Shown: positions 32,151-38,100 of the stretch, one piece after another
Layout of the letters: each line of letters starts with the position of its first letter
How positions within the stretch are numbered: position 1 is the first letter of the stretch
IMG/VR virus record: IMGVR_UViG_3300023170_000023
Span: 60-64,059 of that record
Direction: 5' to 3' (one strand)
Length of the DNA: 64,000 nucleotides
Source: a virus
Lineage: Duplodnaviria; Caudoviricetes
Translations under genes and position numbers: made by a program
The notes under the pieces: generated by a model
Seen by the model: only the letters and a program-made list of their open reading frames with translations
Database searches by the model: none
What the model was told of the DNA's origin: nothing

Positions 32151-35100
32151 TTATTGTTGCGTATTAACTTGCATGGTAATGTTGACATCTACATCATCTG
32201 TGCCAGCACCAACTTTTCGTATTCGAACTCTTGCGGTGTCTAGGAAAATATCATTGTCGTTTGCAATTGAAGATCGTCCTCTAACGTTCCTAGTTGTGCC
32301 CAAAGTCACATAACCAACCGTTGTTCCGGTAATCGTTCCTGTGACTTGTGTGATATTAACTTCGTATTCAGATCCGATACCCACTTGCTTCGCTGCTTCT
32401 GGTAACCAGTTAGCATTTGGAGAAGCATTAAGAGGATCTGTTCTTGCATAATCTGGCACAGATAAAGAAACTAAATCACCATCAGATTGTAATGAGAAAC
32501 CTGCTTGATATGAAGTACCACTGAAGTCCGGATTACCAAGTTGGTTGACCTCAAAATTGGTTACTGTAATTTGAGCATCGGCAAGATCTGATCCAGCGAT
32601 AGAAGTATCGTTAATCGTAACAAAAATGTTCGTTGCAATTTCTGTTCCTCCGGTAGAGGAATCATACAGTCTCGCGTAGAAGGTCTCGTCACCTTCCGTT
32701 AAACTATCTTCATTAAATTGAATCTGCCCACTAAATCCCACACCACCAGTAATAGTGATAGGAATTCTGCTACCAACGCTTGTAGTAAAATCTGCATTCG
32801 AGGTAGTAATATGATCAATCTCAAGATAAACCGTAGAATATGCAGTAGTAGCAACTCTGAACTCGATGTACCCATCTTCTGCATAATTGTGTGGAGCAGA
32901 AAGGAATTGAGATAATCCGGTGTCATACACTGCGAATCCTACATTACCACCACCTGTATCTAACCCCTCATCAATTTTACAATACAAAGTATAAGTTTCT
33001 ACGACAGCAACATCTGTTCCTACTTGAGAAGATGTTTCACCACCAACAAACGGAGCAGTCGCACCAGTTTGTGTAAAGTTAGTTTCGTATATTATATCCA
33101 ATATAAAGTCACCAATAAAATCACCTTCATATTGTATGTTATCTTCGAACTGTATGACGGGATTAGTCTCGTCCTGAAACTGAATCGTCGGATTAGTTTC
33201 GTCTTGGAATTGTATAACGGGGTTAGTGTTACCTTCAAACTGAATCGTCGGATTAGTCGTTGGGTTAGTTTCGTCCTGATACTCCGCAACAAAATTAATT
33301 GTAGGATTAGTTTCGTCCTGATACTCCGCAACAAAATTAATTGTGGGATTAGTGTTACCTTCATAAAGAATATCTAAGATGAAATCGCCTTCATATAAAA
33401 TATCAAGGATAAAGTCAGCGATAAAATCTCCTTCATATAAAATATCAAGGATGAAGTCTGCAATAAAATCGCCTTCATACTGTACTAAGTTATCAAAGTT
33501 GCCCTCGTAGAGAATGTTATCTTCATATTGAATTACTGGGTTTGTTTCATCTTGGAACTGAATGACAGGATTGGTGTTGCCTTCATAAAGAATATCAAGG
33601 ATGAAGTCAGCGATGAAGTCCCCTTCATAAAGAATATCAAGAATGAAGTCAGCAATGAAGTCTCCAGTATATTGAGTTTCAAGAATGAAGTCTCCGATAT
33701 AATCGCCTTCATAAACGATATCAAGAATAAAGTCAGCGATGAAGTCCCCTTCATAAAGAACATCAAGAATGAAATCCCCTTCGTATAAAGTGTCTGCTAT
33801 GAAGTTTGCAATGAAGTCTCCTTCATAGACGATATCAAGGATGAAGTCTGCAATGAAGTCTCCGGTATAGTTGATATCGAGAATGAAGTCTCCGGTATAC
33901 TGAGTGTTACCAACATAAGGAGTTGTTTGAACGAAAGGTGCTGTGGTATTTGCAGTCGAAGAATCGTTGTCAACAGGACCAGTCAAACGAGCATAGTAAG
34001 TACCTGATTTAGGTCCGCTGAAAGTTTGTTGATAATCAACATAGTAAGGCGATGGTGTTAAAGCATTAACCTTAAATTGGTGATTAGTCGAACCTGCAGC
34101 AGAACCTGAAACGTTTGTAATGTTACCTGAAGTTGCGATGATACCATCATGATCAATATCAGAAACTAACACGTTAGCAAATGTCACGGAAACGGTGTCG
34201 CCGCCATTAGGCGAACCAGAATAAGTTACAGAAGGAGTCGTATAAACAGATTCTGTATCATAATCCGAAACGTCTCCATAGAAGAATGTTACTACCACAT
34301 TAATCGTTGAAGAAGACGCTCCTAAGAAATCACCAATATAATCTACGTTACCAACGAAGTTTCCAATATAATCAACCTCGTCTAGGTAAGGGGCGGTTCC
34401 AACTGGATTACCAATGTAAGGAGTTTGTCGAATAAAGTCACCGATGTAATCGACATCATCAATATAAGGCGCTGTTGGTGTAGGTTCAGCAACATATGTA
34501 ATATCAAGAATAAAGTCGCCAATGTAGTTAACGTTATCAACGTAAGGCGCTGTTGGATTTGTTTGTTGTGTATATCCTACGTTTCCTATGAAGTCACCAA
34601 TGTAGTCAACGTTGTCCTGATAGTTAATCGTTGGGTTAGTATTACCAACATAGTTGATATCAAGAATAAAGTCACCGATGTAATCAACGTTATCCTGATA
34701 GTTAATTGTTGGGTTAGTGTTACCAACATAGTTGGTATCAAGGATGAAGTCACCAATGTAGTCAACGTTGTCCTGATAGTTAATCGTTGGGTTAGTGTTA
34801 CCGACGTAGTTTACGTTTCCTATGAAGTCGCCAATGTAGTCAAAGTTATATTGATAGTTAGCAGTAGTATTAAGGTCTCCAATATAAGGAGTAGCAGTTT
34901 TAACAGTTCCAATGTAGTTAATCGTTACATTAGGTTCAGCGGTATATCCTACGTTTCCTACGAAGTTACCAATGTAGTCAACGTTGTCTTGATAGTTAAT
35001 CGTTGCATTAGGTTCAGCAAAATACTGAACGTTGCCGATGAAATCACCAATGTAGTCAACGTTATCAATATATGGAGTAGGAGTTGTAGGTTCAGCAAAA

Positions 35101-38100
35101 TATTGAACGTTATCAATGAAGTCACCAACATAAGGAGTAGTCTGTTTTGGACCACCAATATAGTTAATCGTCACATTAGGTTCAGCAGTATACCCGATAG
35201 GGTTAGCAGAATTACCAATGTAATCAACGTTGTCTTGATAGTTAATCGTTGCATTAGGTTCAGCGGTATATCCTACGTTTCCTATGAAGTCACCAATGTA
35301 GTCAACGTTGTCTTGGTAATTAATAGTAGGTGTAGGTTCAGCAAAATACTGAACGTTATCAATGAAGTCACCAATATAAGGTACTTCTTGTGCTCCATCG
35401 CCAATATAATCGATAGTATAAACGAAATCACCAATGTAGTCAAGGTTATATTGATAGTTAGCAGTAGCATTAGGTTCAGCAAAATACTGAAGATCTCTAA
35501 TGAAGTCACCGATGTAATCTGGATTATCCTGATAGTTAACAGTAGGATTAGTTTCACCAAAGTAGTTGATATCAAGGACGAAGTCACCAATGTAGTCAAC
35601 GTTGTCTTGGTAATTAATAGTTGGGTTAGATTCACCAAAGTAGTTGATATCAAGGACGAAGTCACCAATGTAGTCAACGTTGGCTTGATAGTTAGCAGTA
35701 GGTGTAGGTTCAGCAACATATGTGATATCAAGAATAAAGTCACCGATGTAATCAACGTTATCCTGATAGTTAATTGTTGGGTTGGTTTGTTGTGTATATC
35801 CTACGTTTCCTATGAAGTCACCAATGTAGTCAACGTTGTCAATATAAGGTTCGAAGTAATTGGCATCTCCAATGTAGTCTACGTCACCAACGAAGTCTCC
35901 AATGTAATCAACATCATCGATATAAGGTGCTGAAGGAGTAGGTTCAGCAAGATAAGGTTCAGTGAAATTAGTTTCACTTACGTAAATATAATCCGCGATA
36001 TAGTCAACATCAAGAATATAATCAATGTTGTCTTCGTATACAATTGTCGGATTCGTTTCGTCTTGATATTGAATCGTCGGGTTTGTGGTTGGATTCGTCT
36101 CGTCCTGAAACTGAATCGTTGGGTTAGTTGTGTTATCCACTTCGCCCTGAAACTGTATGACAGGATTAGTTTCGTCCTGAAACTGAATCGTCGGGTTTGT
36201 GGTTGGATTCGTCTCGTCCTGAAAATCTCCAACATAATTAATCGTAGGATTAGTATCCCCTTCATATACGATAGTTGGATTAGTAGTCGGATTCGTTTCG
36301 TCTTGGAACTGTATGACAGGATTCGTAGTCGGGTTAGTTTCGTCCTGATATTGAATATTTAATATAAAATCGCCTTCATAAAGAATATCAAGGATAAAGT
36401 CCCCTTCATACAAAACGTTTTCTTCGAATTGTACGTTGTCAATAAAGTTTCCTTCAAAGACAATTGTTGGGTTAGTAGTCGGATTCGTTTCGTCTTGATA
36501 CTGTATGACAGGATTCGTAGTAGGATTAGTCTCGTCCTGAAACTGAATCGTTGGGTTCGTTTCATCCTGATACTGAATGTTGAGAATGAAATCCCCTATA
36601 AAATCTCCCTCGTAAATAGTATCAAGAATGAAATCTCCTATGAAGTCTCCTTCATAAATGATATCAAGAATGAAGTCCGCAATAAAATCGCCTTCATAAA
36701 GAATATTAAGTACAAAGTCTCCTTCATATACGATGTCCAATATGAAGTCGCCCTCATACAAGATGTCTAAGATAAAGTCGCCTTCATAGATAACGTTATC
36801 TTCAAACTGAGAAGTGAAGTTTAGAGTCGGGTTTGTTTCGCCTTGATATTCAGCAATGTAATCTAACTGATAATCTGCGAGATACTGTTCTACGTCAGAG
36901 GTATAAGTTGTTTGGTTTCTGGTATCAACGGCGATTCCTCTAGACACCCAGATTCCGGGTTCAGTAGGAGAACCCTGTGCAGAAGACCTCAACTGATAAG
37001 TACCAATCCCCGTAGACTTGATAACTTCTTTTGCGCGTTCTCCTAATGTAGTAGATAGAACTGCATCACTGCCTTCTTTAATGCCAGCAAAAGTTCCAAC
37101 ACTACCGGAAGACCTTTCCACTGTCATCGCTTTACGCTTCGTGGGTACAGTCCCCGATTGTTTTATGTAAATAGAATAGTTTTGACTGTGTCCATCGTTT
37201 CTTGTATCAGTAAATACATTAGATAAGAAAACAGTCCAATCTGCACCGGGAGAAGAAGACGCAAGACGAAACACACCGGGGAACTCATCTCGCATAATCT
37301 TTTTAACAAGACGTTCGACAAGAACATCAAGTTCAGTGTCGTTCATCTCTTTCAATCCCGGAGGATTCTGTGTTTTATCCCACTGCAACAATCCTCGCCA
37401 ATTCGCTTCGTTTCTCTGAGAAGCAACTGTTGTCAGATTTTGATAAAGACTGATAACATCTGAGTTTAAAGTATAACCACCGCCACTAGCGGCAACTCCG
37501 GTAAAAGTTAAAGTATAATATTGAACCGGATCTCCACCAGTGAGAGGTCCATCGTTAAAATATAATTCGCATGGTCCGGTTCCTGTTACTTCAACGGTAT
37601 ACTCGTATCCGATATCACCGCCCAGCGTTGAAGTAACAGTATATGCAGACTGATTAGTAGATAATGCTTGATTCCAAAAAGGAGTCGGTGTTGCTCCTCC
37701 ACCTAACGTAACATTAATAACAGTTCCTACTTCAACATTGCCAAGAGCATCAGTATCAGTATATAAAGAAGGATCGCCATTTACTTCTATTAAACCGGGA
37801 GATCCTGCATTAACCTGAATCGTTGAAATTTCAGTACCCATGTTCCACGAATCAGAAGCACTATCAGGAGTAAGACCATCTTTCGATACAAGAACATTAA
37901 AAATAATATTCAACTCACCTTCACCTTCAACTACCATAGTAAAGGTCGATTGAAGGGTGCCAGAAGAAGGAGCACTAAATTGTGTACTGTCCCAAACAGC
38001 AGAAGTCGTAGTAGTAGAATTTGCAGTTGGTGAAGTCACGTTACTTAAAGAAACGGAACCCCCAGTTACTCCATCAACTGTAGTAGTAATATATTGACTA

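Follow-up and report, generated by a model that had tools for sequence, protein, structure and literature searches.

The two outer repeat arms of P0001, a 2120-amino acid viral protein, are mirror complements of each other, and this relationship is confirmed by a test that makes no use of sequence motifs. P0001 is probably a fold-back fiber shaft, whose closest counterpart in design is the needle of T4 gp37, at about ten times the length.

Gene, genomic setting, and protein layout

P0001 is encoded in the window, which is the whole stretch of 64,000 nucleotides of viral DNA that was analyzed. The adjoining genes match the PHROG baseplate wedge families phrog_219 and phrog_438. The P0001 sequence itself has no match in Pfam, PHROGs, or the PDB (PDB chains searched to E ≤ 1). 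The best explanation is that P0001 is a virion fiber protein of an uncultured T4-like myovirus, located in a block of baseplate and fiber genes. The residue numbers given in the first-pass annotation are correct: YIGGPKQTTP is aa 1118-1127 (nt 35133-35162), FEDNVI is at aa 570, and FEDNIQ is at aa 1789. The parts of the gene are as follows.

32151..38513, minus strand: whole gene for P0001, 2120 aa, a fiber-like virion protein (ORF list, translation, neighbors)
36879..37496, minus strand: conserved N-terminal family domain, ~aa 340-545 (family search, P0108 model)
36021..36848, minus strand: outgoing arm A, aa 556-831, with 24 F-type and T-type units measuring 6, 10, or 14 aa (tokenization, gapless mirror listing)
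35163..36020, minus strand: left arm of inner block B, aa 832-1117, 26-aa super-repeat and irregular units (unit tokenization, mirror listing)
35133..35162, minus strand: proposed turn YIGGPKQTTP, aa 1118-1127, center of the inner mirror, i+j=2245
34311..35132, minus strand: right arm of inner block B, returning, aa 1128-1401
33918..34310, minus strand: one-sided non-repeat insert in the returning arm, aa 1402-1532
33090..33917, minus strand: arm C, returning, aa 1533-1808, 24 units mirroring arm A with F and T exchanged, i+j=2364
32976..32999, minus strand: family C-terminal strand motif ETYTLYCK, aa 1839-1846
32151..33089, minus strand: C-terminal region beyond the arms, aa 1809-2120

The insert (131 aa) faces just 12 residues of the outgoing arm (aa 832-843) and is conserved in the homolog P0003. 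A Pfam search with it gave no match, and it is probably a side domain on the shaft. Without the insert, the two arms measure 587 and 581 residues. The C-terminal region, also without a match in Pfam, is common to P0003, L044, and L050 and is missing from most family members. The N-terminal domain is likely to be both the anchor and the base of the hairpin.

Mirror complementarity of the outer arms

Arms A and C are built from two types of units. F units (YEGDFI(AD)FILDIL) are hydrophobic, and T units (YQDETNP(TTNP)TIQ) are polar. Tokenization yields the series of unit lengths that had been read after FEDNVI, and the same series is obtained backwards from FEDNIQ. Counting the flanking 14-mers, each arm has 24 units, which are equal in length at 22 of the 24 positions; at the remaining two, a 10+4+14 composite is located opposite 14+14, both of 28 residues. 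Residues 556-831 of arm A can be aligned antiparallel with residues 1808-1533 of arm C without a gap (i+j=2364, 276+276 residues). The first-pass annotation described the partners as complementary, and indeed each F unit in these arms is opposite a T unit of equal length. Likewise, 6-mers face 6-mers, and FEGNFIDNVQ faces YEGNFDNLVQ.

To test the mirror independently of motifs, the hydropathy profile of aa 570-831 (Kyte-Doolittle, window 7) was compared with that of its own mirror image. The correlation is r=-0.803 at exactly K=2364, which is more extreme than at any other of 1028 mirror registers or at any of 1028 forward offsets, where r goes no lower than -0.483. Shuffling the unit order of arm C, a control that had been proposed along with the original claim, reaches the observed r in 0 of 5000 trials, with a minimum of -0.597.

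The inner block

Block B has a 26-aa super-repeat (YIGDFIGNVG, YTAEPNATIN, and YQDNVD) together with irregular units. Its Tyr unit boundaries coincide in 31 of 35 cases at i+j=2245, and in 27 of 34 and 26 of 33 cases at registers one period (26 aa) off. The evidence for a mirror here is weaker than that for the outer arms because the array is periodic (F,T,6). The irregular pairs are as originally described (YQYNLD opposite YQYNFD, and YIGDGAQEVP opposite YIGTVKTATP), whereas the placement of F opposite T follows automatically from the periodicity. The inner mirror is largely implied by this periodicity, and the informative features are limited to the irregular units that match and the arm ends that match.

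Natural variants of the arms

P0003 is 46% identical to P0001 and has a different order of units, with 8 F units followed by 13 T units, compared with F6-T3-X-6-F2-T8 in P0001. When the mirror test is repeated on this homolog, 23 of 23 unit lengths are mirrored despite the other order. The mirror hydropathy correlation is r=-0.74 at K=2331, a value reached by 0 of 5000 shuffles. In its inner block, three Y-x-Y 6-mers of one arm face three Y-x-Y 6-mers of the other. Since P0003 keeps the mirror with a different unit order, changes in the arms must have been compensated.

The compensation of arm indels expected for homologs does not extend to P0002, which is 95% identical to P0001. This protein lacks 52 aa (two 26-aa super-repeats) in the returning inner arm only. 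In the window, the corresponding stretch is bordered by 53-nt exact direct repeats (34744-34796 and 34588-34640) within the right arm of block B, and its absence from P0002 may reflect either a real recombinant or an assembly collapse. A 78-nt skip, equivalent to one super-repeat, is present in the returning arm at 34999-35078 in contigs from three of four metagenome runs; these contigs are too short to reveal the state of the other arm.

Among the 72 family lineages tested, hydropathic complementarity between F and T is found only in those of P0001 and P0003, and F and T units are carried by only two independent lineages. Reversed scores are higher than forward scores in 13 of 64 proteins of middle size and in none of eight large ones, and the excess is strong only in P0001 and P0003. 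Outside these two, a gapless hydropathy test is positive for 9 of 57, compared with 6.1 expected (P=0.15). Hydropathic mirror complementarity is not a trait of the family.

Architecture of the protein family

With aa 340-1200 as the query, at least 250 representatives (counted at 50% identity) are recovered at E ≤ 0.001, of which 73 reach E ≤ 1e-30, mostly through matches to the N-terminal domain. This domain, which P0001 has (alignment A2), is marked by motifs such as EExYLAY, GxYQLRSSAxGxP, and AxDT. Complete relatives mostly terminate in ETYTLYVRIA, and the ETYTLYCK motif of P0001 follows the repeats. A tip domain with the motif YY.[IV]RR is located at the midpoint in all five complete relatives that carry it. 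The arms on its two sides measure ~112/116, 170/177, 782/796, 778/776, and 1388/1367 residues, with boundaries placed by eye except in L003.

A mirror center can also be predicted as the end of the N-domain motif plus the start of the C-terminal motif. The best gapless aromatic-to-aromatic mirror center is at most 8 residues from the predicted value in 18 of 72 family lineages. Only 2.5 of 72 are expected by chance, and 0 of 400,000 simulations reach 18. The best explanation is that P0001 belongs to a large unannotated family with the order N-terminal domain, arm, turn or tip, equal arm, and C-terminal strand.

The family is absent from Pfam, PHROGs, and the PDB, and a profile of alignment A2 found only Fusolin (E 0.016). 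Its members are common in marine and salt-marsh T4-like phages. The only match among phage records is a 3347-aa protein of phage C48C1 (OQ984149.1, WJE88074.1), which is annotated solely as hypothetical. This protein and P0001 have the N-terminal family domain in common (42% identity over 148 aa, E 4e-32), and the C48C1 gene sits in a fiber gene block, where it follows one annotated "tail assembly chaperone."

Predicted structures and alternative explanations

An AlphaFold2 model of P0108, a 586-aa relative, was built with a 41-sequence alignment. In this model, the N-terminal domain has pLDDT values of 85-98 and the strand of the C-terminal motif has values of 90-97. Continuous strands of 32-34 residues (257-288 and 551-584) are located at the base, and their pLDDT falls in step, from 96 through 92 and 74 to 45 on the outward side and from 97 through 90 and 75 to 43 on the returning side. 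In VIA-align, a single beta-prism-like match spans residues 42 to 586 (Z 7.1, rmsd 3.9 over 123 residues), such that the C-terminal strand is within the range that aligns, along with the N-terminal domain, to beta-prism domains. If the base pairing of P0108 is extrapolated to P0001, then i+j is ~2369, near the value of 2364 given by the repeats.

Modeling of the apex, which the first-pass annotation had put forward as a check for antiparallel arms, gave a different picture. The single-sequence model of fragment aa 968-1277 resembles a solenoid but has low confidence (pLDDT 59.7, pTM 0.55), and strands of 2-6 residues recur in it every 26 aa. Foldseek returned nothing at E ≤ 0.001 for this model, and the weak rows are all beta-solenoids, including curli CsgA 8c50 (E 0.036) and antifreeze protein 3p4g (E 0.53), with TM ~0.2. 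DSSP assigns no helix to the arms in either AlphaFold2 model.

These weak resemblances and the short strands at a 26-aa period favor an alternative in which each arm is a local beta-solenoid. Block B would form 26-aa rungs, with 10+10+6 as three sides, and the rungs of blocks A and C would be pairs of units. The rod would then be ~10-15 nm long, not 170 nm, and the mirror would reflect side-by-side packing of two short halves or another constraint. A 26-aa period in repeats with many Asn, Gly, and aromatic residues does fit known beta-helix rungs, and indels of whole super-repeats in one arm seem to be tolerated in P0002 and the metagenome contigs. However, the apex model was built without an alignment and its confidence is low, whereas the better-supported P0108 model has long base strands instead of rungs. 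Runs of T units are too poor in hydrophobic residues to form a core of their own. Moreover, a solenoid leaves unexplained why a 4-residue quantum in an F unit is matched in a T unit ~1000 residues away, in two lineages. We consider this alternative unlikely.

Another scenario is that the complementary arms pair between antiparallel chains, with arm A of one chain on arm C of another and N-terminal domains at both ends. The mirror statistics fit pairing within and between chains alike, and complementarity alone cannot separate the two. However, a structure with two identical ends seems ill-suited to a part anchored to the virion at one end, and the 10-residue apex with Gly-Gly-Pro resembles a turn. 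In addition, relatives have a midpoint tip domain, and their C-terminal strand is modeled together with the N-terminal domain of the same chain. The interchain arrangement could not appear in a model of a monomer, however. Pairing between chains is decidedly improbable.

At the DNA level, the arms do not form an inverted repeat. When arm C is compared with the reverse complement of arm A, identity at the mirror register is 29.7%, about the background level (mean 26.9%, sd 3.4, over 601 shifts), and no inverted repeat is longer than 40 nt (at 70%). Direct identity from arm to arm is up to 52-64%. Short inverted matches of 14-18 nt pair FILD codons with the reverse complement of YQDE codons, which is expected because central-T codons pair with central-A codons in the genetic code. 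These short matches are what might favor a mirror without structural meaning, left by the origin of the repeats (e.g., an ancient inverted duplication in another frame or biased gene conversion), but this idea is scarcely credible given the background-level identity and the internal mirrors of both P0001 and P0003 despite their different orders, which would need repeated matched arm changes after divergence that no known mutational process produces.

A proposed fold-back model for P0001

The first-pass annotation proposed that the chain folds back on itself as one long antiparallel filament. Mirror complementarity, the compensated changes in P0003, the family architecture, and the long base strands modeled in P0108 all favor this proposal, whereas the P0002 deletion and the solenoid-like apex model do not, and none of the methods applied revealed arm-to-arm contacts. 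In the fold-back model, the chain would leave the N-terminal domain, extend for ~560 residues, reverse at aa 1118-1127, and return antiparallel alongside itself, until the C-terminal strand rejoins the N-terminal domain. We infer that the arms pair physically and that they consist of extended strands instead of solenoid rungs.

Each level of the shaft would comprise one hydrophobic F segment and one polar T segment of equal length. F segments would have aromatic or small residues at every second position, in 4-residue FIxD quanta, and T segments would be made of TNPT quanta. Given equal lengths at each level, a 4-residue insertion in one arm would have to be matched in the other. The 131-aa insert would project as a side domain from the returning arm. 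By analogy with T4-type fibers, the shaft may trimerize; attachment would be via the N-terminal domain, and the very acidic shaft may bind cations.

A more specific version is that the shaft is a trimer of giant beta-hairpins ~100-180 nm long, whose register is set by a two-letter code. FIxD quanta would pair only with antiparallel TNPT quanta, and the arms would swap core and surface positions where the unit type switches. We offer this version tentatively, as a possibility that is open to considerable doubt.

If the fold-back model is correct, then P0001 represents a new means of making a phage fiber that is long, thin, and adjustable in length out of one polypeptide chain. The middle of the sequence would encode the distal end, both termini would be at the anchor, and the register of the arms would be kept by complementary unit types, not by identical repeats. 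The longest intramolecular beta pairing known so far would be exceeded by an order of magnitude, and structural biologists and protein designers would gain from nature a readable rule for heterotypic antiparallel strand pairing. If the two-letter code also holds, then the shaft would be the counterpart, in protein, of a nucleic-acid stem. Its length and pattern would evolve by compensated insertions, and it could be reprogrammed by design. Since the family is large and unannotated, a correct model would supply the annotation for a major class of giant structural genes of phages that is so far unexplained, and would locate their receptor-binding parts.

Comparison with known systems

We found no published description of a fold-back fiber with mirrored complementary repeat arms. 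P0001 resembles beta-solenoids such as curli CsgA (8c50) and the Ca2+-dependent beta-helical antifreeze protein 3p4g in its short repeats rich in Asn, Gly, Thr, and aromatics, and in its strongly acidic shaft, which could bind cations. In contrast, the Foldseek matches of the apex model are not significant. Solenoids need no long-range mirror order, and we know of no solenoid that has one.

The closest design is that of gp37, the tip protein of the T4 long tail fiber, whose needle is six-stranded. The part of PMC9659904 that cites Bartual et al. describes a needle in which each chain runs to the tip and back in antiparallel strands. As in gp37, the distal tip would lie in mid-sequence in P0001, whose relatives have a midpoint tip domain. 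Unlike gp37, P0001 has arms of ~550 residues rather than tens of residues, and the proposed hairpin makes up nearly the whole protein, with the C terminus back at the N-terminal domain. Its complementary F and T units have no counterpart in gp37, and the two proteins are not similar in sequence (a PDB search with P0001 gave no chain at E ≤ 1). The core of the gp37 needle is lined with His-x-His motifs that bind iron. Across arms A, B, and C, none of the 1122 repeat residues is His, and therefore such metal sites are impossible in the arms of P0001.

SMC, Rad50, and MukB proteins have intramolecular antiparallel coiled-coil arms with an apex hinge, and their N- and C-terminal parts meet. Their long arms require equal length and matched irregularities, but these are alpha-helical heptads in enzymes that act on DNA. 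P0001 is probably a virion part, and its arms carry Pro every 4-10 residues (in T units) and aromatics every 4, with modeled strands and no helices. The likeness is in the proposed single-chain fold-back, with long arms of equal length and matched irregularities.

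A mirrored repeat protein encoded among late genes

The mirrored feature is contained whole in a single ORF, whose translation product, P0001, is a fibre-like protein with the following layout.

32151-38513, minus strand: ORF encoding P0001, 2120 aa
P0001 aa 1-555: N-terminal region
P0001 aa 556-831: arm A
P0001 aa 832-1401: block B, including YIGGPKQTTP at aa 1118-1127
P0001 aa 1402-1532: non-repeat insert
P0001 aa 1533-1808: arm C
P0001 aa 1809-2120: C-terminal region

The repeats consist of hydrophobic (F), polar (T) and odd units, all of which are 6, 10 or 14 residues long (4n+2). 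Among the 1122 repeat residues there are 207 Asp+Glu and 4 Lys+Arg, and His, Cys, Trp and Met are all absent. This extremely acidic composition suggests that cations are bound. P0001, parts of it and four of its relatives were searched against Pfam, PHROGs and PDB sequences without a usable match; the only rows, all sub-threshold, were MG2, Orthopox_A36R, phrog_35321 and Fusolin. Nor does the gene match any phage record by megablast. A 502-aa open frame runs antisense to the repeat block (34425-35933, plus strand). Since low-complexity repeats leave the antisense strand without stops, this frame most probably stems from the repeats and is no gene.

The P0001 gene is located within a series of minus-strand late genes, followed by several giant ORFs. 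Two late genes near it match the baseplate wedge families phrog_219 and phrog_438. The gp6-like protein of the window has 36% identity to its counterpart in phage C48C1 (Kyanoviridae), 33% to that of Pelagibacter phage HTVC008M and 31-32% to those of cyanomyoviruses. On the strength of these identities and the wedge matches, the source is assigned to an uncultured T4-like myovirus. DNA near-identical to the window is present in salt-marsh metagenome runs.

The structural block also encodes a 631-aa protein (24952-26847, minus strand) that matches subtilase Peptidase_S8 (Pfam E 8.5e-13) and phrog_3677 'protease'. Two more giant ORFs of the late block (14322-24896 and 7540-13956, minus strand; 3524 and 2138 aa) lack the F/T repeat motifs in a motif search. 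Six small genes flank the fibre gene (29809-32098 and 38655-40626, minus strand). None has a Pfam match at E<=0.01, nor do the five scanned against PHROG match there, and glycosyltransferase, oxygenase or GNAT identities for these genes are unsupported by either collection.

The outer arms are complementary mirror images

The first-pass annotation had proposed that the series of repeat units reads the same from both ends, with complementary partners. Its residue numbers and unit series were all correct on re-check. When arms A and C are written antiparallel at i+j=2364 (the constant sum of paired residue numbers, K), they match gap-free over 276+276 residues. As had been claimed, F units (YEGDFILDIL, YEGDFIADFILDIL) lie opposite T units of equal length (FQDETNPVIQ, YQDETNPTTNPTIQ). 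The 6-mers are likewise paired with 6-mers, and opposite the odd unit FEGNFIDNVQ stands YEGNFDNLVQ. Unit lengths are identical at 22 of the 24 positions, the remaining two being 10+4+14 versus 14+14.

A motif-free test, in which the smoothed hydropathy of aa 570-831 was compared with its own mirror image, gave r=-0.803 at exactly K=2364. No other of the 1028 mirror registers, and none of the 1028 forward offsets, is as extreme; among the forward offsets the lowest value is -0.483. In the shuffle control that had been proposed for this mirror, none of 5000 reorderings of the arm C units attained the observed score.

The inner block is mirrored about the apex at i+j=2245, where 31 of 35 Tyr boundaries coincide, compared with 27/34 and 26/33 one period off. 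Evidence here is thinner, because a periodic (F,T,6) array is mirror-complementary by construction. The informative pairs are the extra 10-mers (YIGDGAQEVP with YIGTVKTATP), YQYNLD with YQYNFD, and the matched arm ends. The F-against-T rule follows automatically from periodicity here.

An inverted repeat in the DNA can be ruled out as the origin of the mirror. The reverse complement of arm A has 29.7% identity to arm C at the mirror register, which is background (mean 26.9%, sd 3.4), and no long inverted repeat was found. At the DNA level the outer arms are direct repeats with 52-64% identity. The codons for FILD and YQDE do share short inverted matches, as expected from a genetic code that pairs hydrophobic with hydrophilic codons.

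Conservation and change in close homologs

P0001 has two full-length close homologs. P0003 (2238 aa, 46% identity; L001 and L045 are fragments of its lineage) also mirrors, with a different unit order. In its arm A eight F units precede thirteen T units, whereas arm A of P0001 reads F6-T3-X-6-F2-T8. P0003 arm C mirrors its arm A at 23/23 unit lengths, with r=-0.74 at K=2331 and 0/5000 shuffles as extreme. For its inner block the mirror lies at K=2214 (28/33 boundaries versus 21/32 at the second-best register), with three Y-x-Y 6-mers opposite three Y-x-Y 6-mers. Because the two unit orders differ yet each mirrors internally, the comparison indicates that several one-arm indels or type changes since the split were matched in the opposite arm.

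P0002 (95% identity) lacks 52 aa, equal to two 26-aa super-repeats, and this loss is confined to the returning arm of block B. The outer arms of P0002 remain mirrored (r=-0.79 at K=2312). Uncompensated arm indels had been named as evidence against pairing, and on this point the homologs divide: the outer P0003 arms are fully matched, and the P0002 loss is one-sided. In the window, a pair of exact 53-nt direct repeats (34588-34640 and 34744-34796, 156 nt apart) precisely bounds the missing stretch, and the deletion could be a genuine recombinant or an assembly collapse. These repeats are a hotspot for either event. Among the differences listed for short metagenome contigs aligned to the window there is no 156-nt skip, and contigs of run X1 span 34630-34957 without difference from it. 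A 78-nt skip (one super-repeat of the returning arm, 34999-35078) is present in contigs of three of four salt-marsh runs, reflecting either strain variation or an artefact of repeats in short contigs. Two weaker joints are also listed.

A large family with central tip domains

A search with P0001 aa 340-1200 against 1.84 billion representatives (E<=0.001) yielded 250 proteins matching in the N-terminal domain. By these matches, P0001 belongs to a large family outside Pfam, PHROGs and PDB. Complete members have 572 to >3200 aa, and most end in the strand ETYTLYVRIA, which in P0001 is ETYTLYCK (aa 1839-1846). Between domain and strand lie aromatic-rich repeats in several dialects, with an aromatic at about every fourth residue. 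In the phage record collection the single match is a 3347-aa hypothetical protein of C48C1 (L094; OQ984149.1, 141011-151054), which carries the N-terminal family domain and is encoded directly after a 'tail assembly chaperone' gene. No relevant paper on C48C1 turned up in a literature search.

Low aromatic density was too crude a criterion for a central domain (11 usable proteins, fractions 0.17-0.72), and therefore a tip-domain motif was used instead. Five complete relatives have an aromatic-rich domain of ~85-110 aa (aa ~1186-1295 in L003) that ends in YY.[IV]RR, and in 5/5 it is located at the midpoint. In P0001 this place is occupied only by a proposed turn of 10 residues. The domain is likely a receptor-binding tip. 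With phmmer, the L003 domain retrieved L003-like copies only.

Table. Approximate arm lengths (aa) on either side of the tip domain. Boundaries were placed by eye, except for L003.
Relative: lengths of the two arms
P0108: 112/116
P0065: 170/177 (two tip copies, in tandem)
L005: 782/796
L003: 778/776
L011: 1388/1367

A mirror-centre test compared the register with most aromatic-to-aromatic coincidences with the sum of N-domain motif end and C-terminal motif start (tolerance 8 residues). After omission of 11 near-duplicates (L071, L056, P0002, L085, L005, L055, L033, L021, L025, L046 and L058), 18 of 72 lineages were positive, where 2.5 are expected by chance; 0 of 400,000 simulations attained 18.

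Hydrophobic-versus-polar complementarity is not general in the family, and is strong in P0001 and P0003 only. Only two lineages have F/T units. Outside these two proteins, the gapless hydropathy mirror was positive in 9/57 versus 6.1 expected (P=0.15; near-duplicates L071, L056, P0002, L085, L005 and L055 and proteins with <100 registers omitted). In local alignments of hydropathy, the reversed direction outscored the forward one in 13/64 proteins, then in 0/8 large ones, likewise without significance beyond P0001 and P0003. A mirror scan of unit heads showed no clear gapless register in L003, L005 or L011 (best 27/71). Hand listings of relatives P0058 and P0053 place aromatic-Gly segments opposite TRNS- or NST-type segments, a pattern that is statistically not firm.

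The metagenome locus L050 (2225-aa ORF) has a P0001-type C-terminal region and a quite different 30-aa super-repeat. Its dialects (TSSVPYVETYTQTYEGPFYTQAYEGPTFTR and TSSIGYVSTSSIGFDG) follow the same order in both arms, and therefore a fold-back would set one dialect opposite the other.

Structure predictions

AlphaFold2 was run on an alignment of 41 sequences for the relative P0108 (586 aa). The N-terminal domain is modelled at pLDDT 85-98, followed by two continuous strands (257-288 and 551-584) whose pLDDT drops in step away from the domain (outgoing 96, 92, 74, 45; returning 97, 90, 75, 43). Mid-arm portions are unmodelled (pLDDT 26-32). Judged from their length and not from coordinates, the modelled strands would have to be each other's partners. 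Transferred to P0001, this pairing at the base of the arms would correspond to i+j ~2369, near 2364.

VIA-align of P0108 42-586, with low-confidence parts trimmed, matched beta-prism domains of MACPF-type proteins and the MABP domain (Z 7.1-5.0). Because the match covers this whole range, the model places the C-terminal strand in one body with the N-terminal domain. Since Z values in this range are common for the method, the name of the fold should be taken as no more than a lead. Foldseek on the whole P0108 model returned chance rows only, mostly antibody chains (TM 0.05), and ESM Atlas scores for the N-terminal domain were <=0.80, so that its hits, Baseplate_J_N among them, are no more than leads. 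Complex prediction for arms A and C (aa 556-831 and 1533-1808) gave 0.00 in both runs, the partner fold itself being uncertain, and counts neither for nor against arm pairing.

An apex-centred fragment, as the first-pass annotation had recommended, was modelled from a single sequence (aa 968-1277). The result is solenoid-like, with short strands each 26 aa and pLDDT 59.7. Foldseek found no significant match to it, and the weak rows were solenoids. These two observations, of low confidence, would fit arms that form local solenoids, but stacked local rungs offer no reason for equal mirrored unit lengths, and we consider this explanation unlikely. Pairing of the arms between chains seems less likely still. 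That the mirror is a meaningless relic of repeat history is highly improbable.

A probable fold-back fibre

The explanation we favor, and regard as reasonably probable, is that the P0001 chain folds back on itself. The mirror complementarity and the compensated change between arms support this interpretation, whereas the one-arm loss in P0002, the 78-nt skip in that arm, the solenoid-like apex model and the confinement of F/T units to two lineages speak against it. The outgoing arm would depart from the N-terminal domain, reverse at aa 1118-1127 and come back alongside itself, and the C-terminal strand would join the N-terminal domain again. Strands lying side by side along a fibre would require strictly equal unit lengths at mirror positions, in four-residue quanta. 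The 131-aa insert would be a one-sided side domain, opposite aa 832-843 only.

Odd positions of F units read Y-G-F-A/L-F-L-I, an alternation of large and small residues, and T units are poor in hydrophobic residues. For these reasons the core is probably made of F segments and covered by T segments, with the arms trading roles at each type switch.

If P0001 is a trimer, there would be six strands per level, by analogy with the gp37 needle rather than as a result. To our knowledge, all T4-type fibres are trimeric. The gp37 needle is described as having six strands per level (PMC9659904). A search of the openly accessible literature for a comparable fold-back fibre brought up, apart from the gp37 needle of T4, only unrelated papers. 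The novelty of P0001 would be a phage fibre in which the fold-back extends over the whole shaft, with complementary unit types. P0001 has no sequence relationship to the gp37 needle or to SMC-type proteins, no histidines in its repeats and no modelled helices in its arms, and is a member of neither family. The gp37 needle is nonetheless the nearest known system in design, and SMC-type proteins, whose arms are antiparallel coiled coils, are the nearest in logic.
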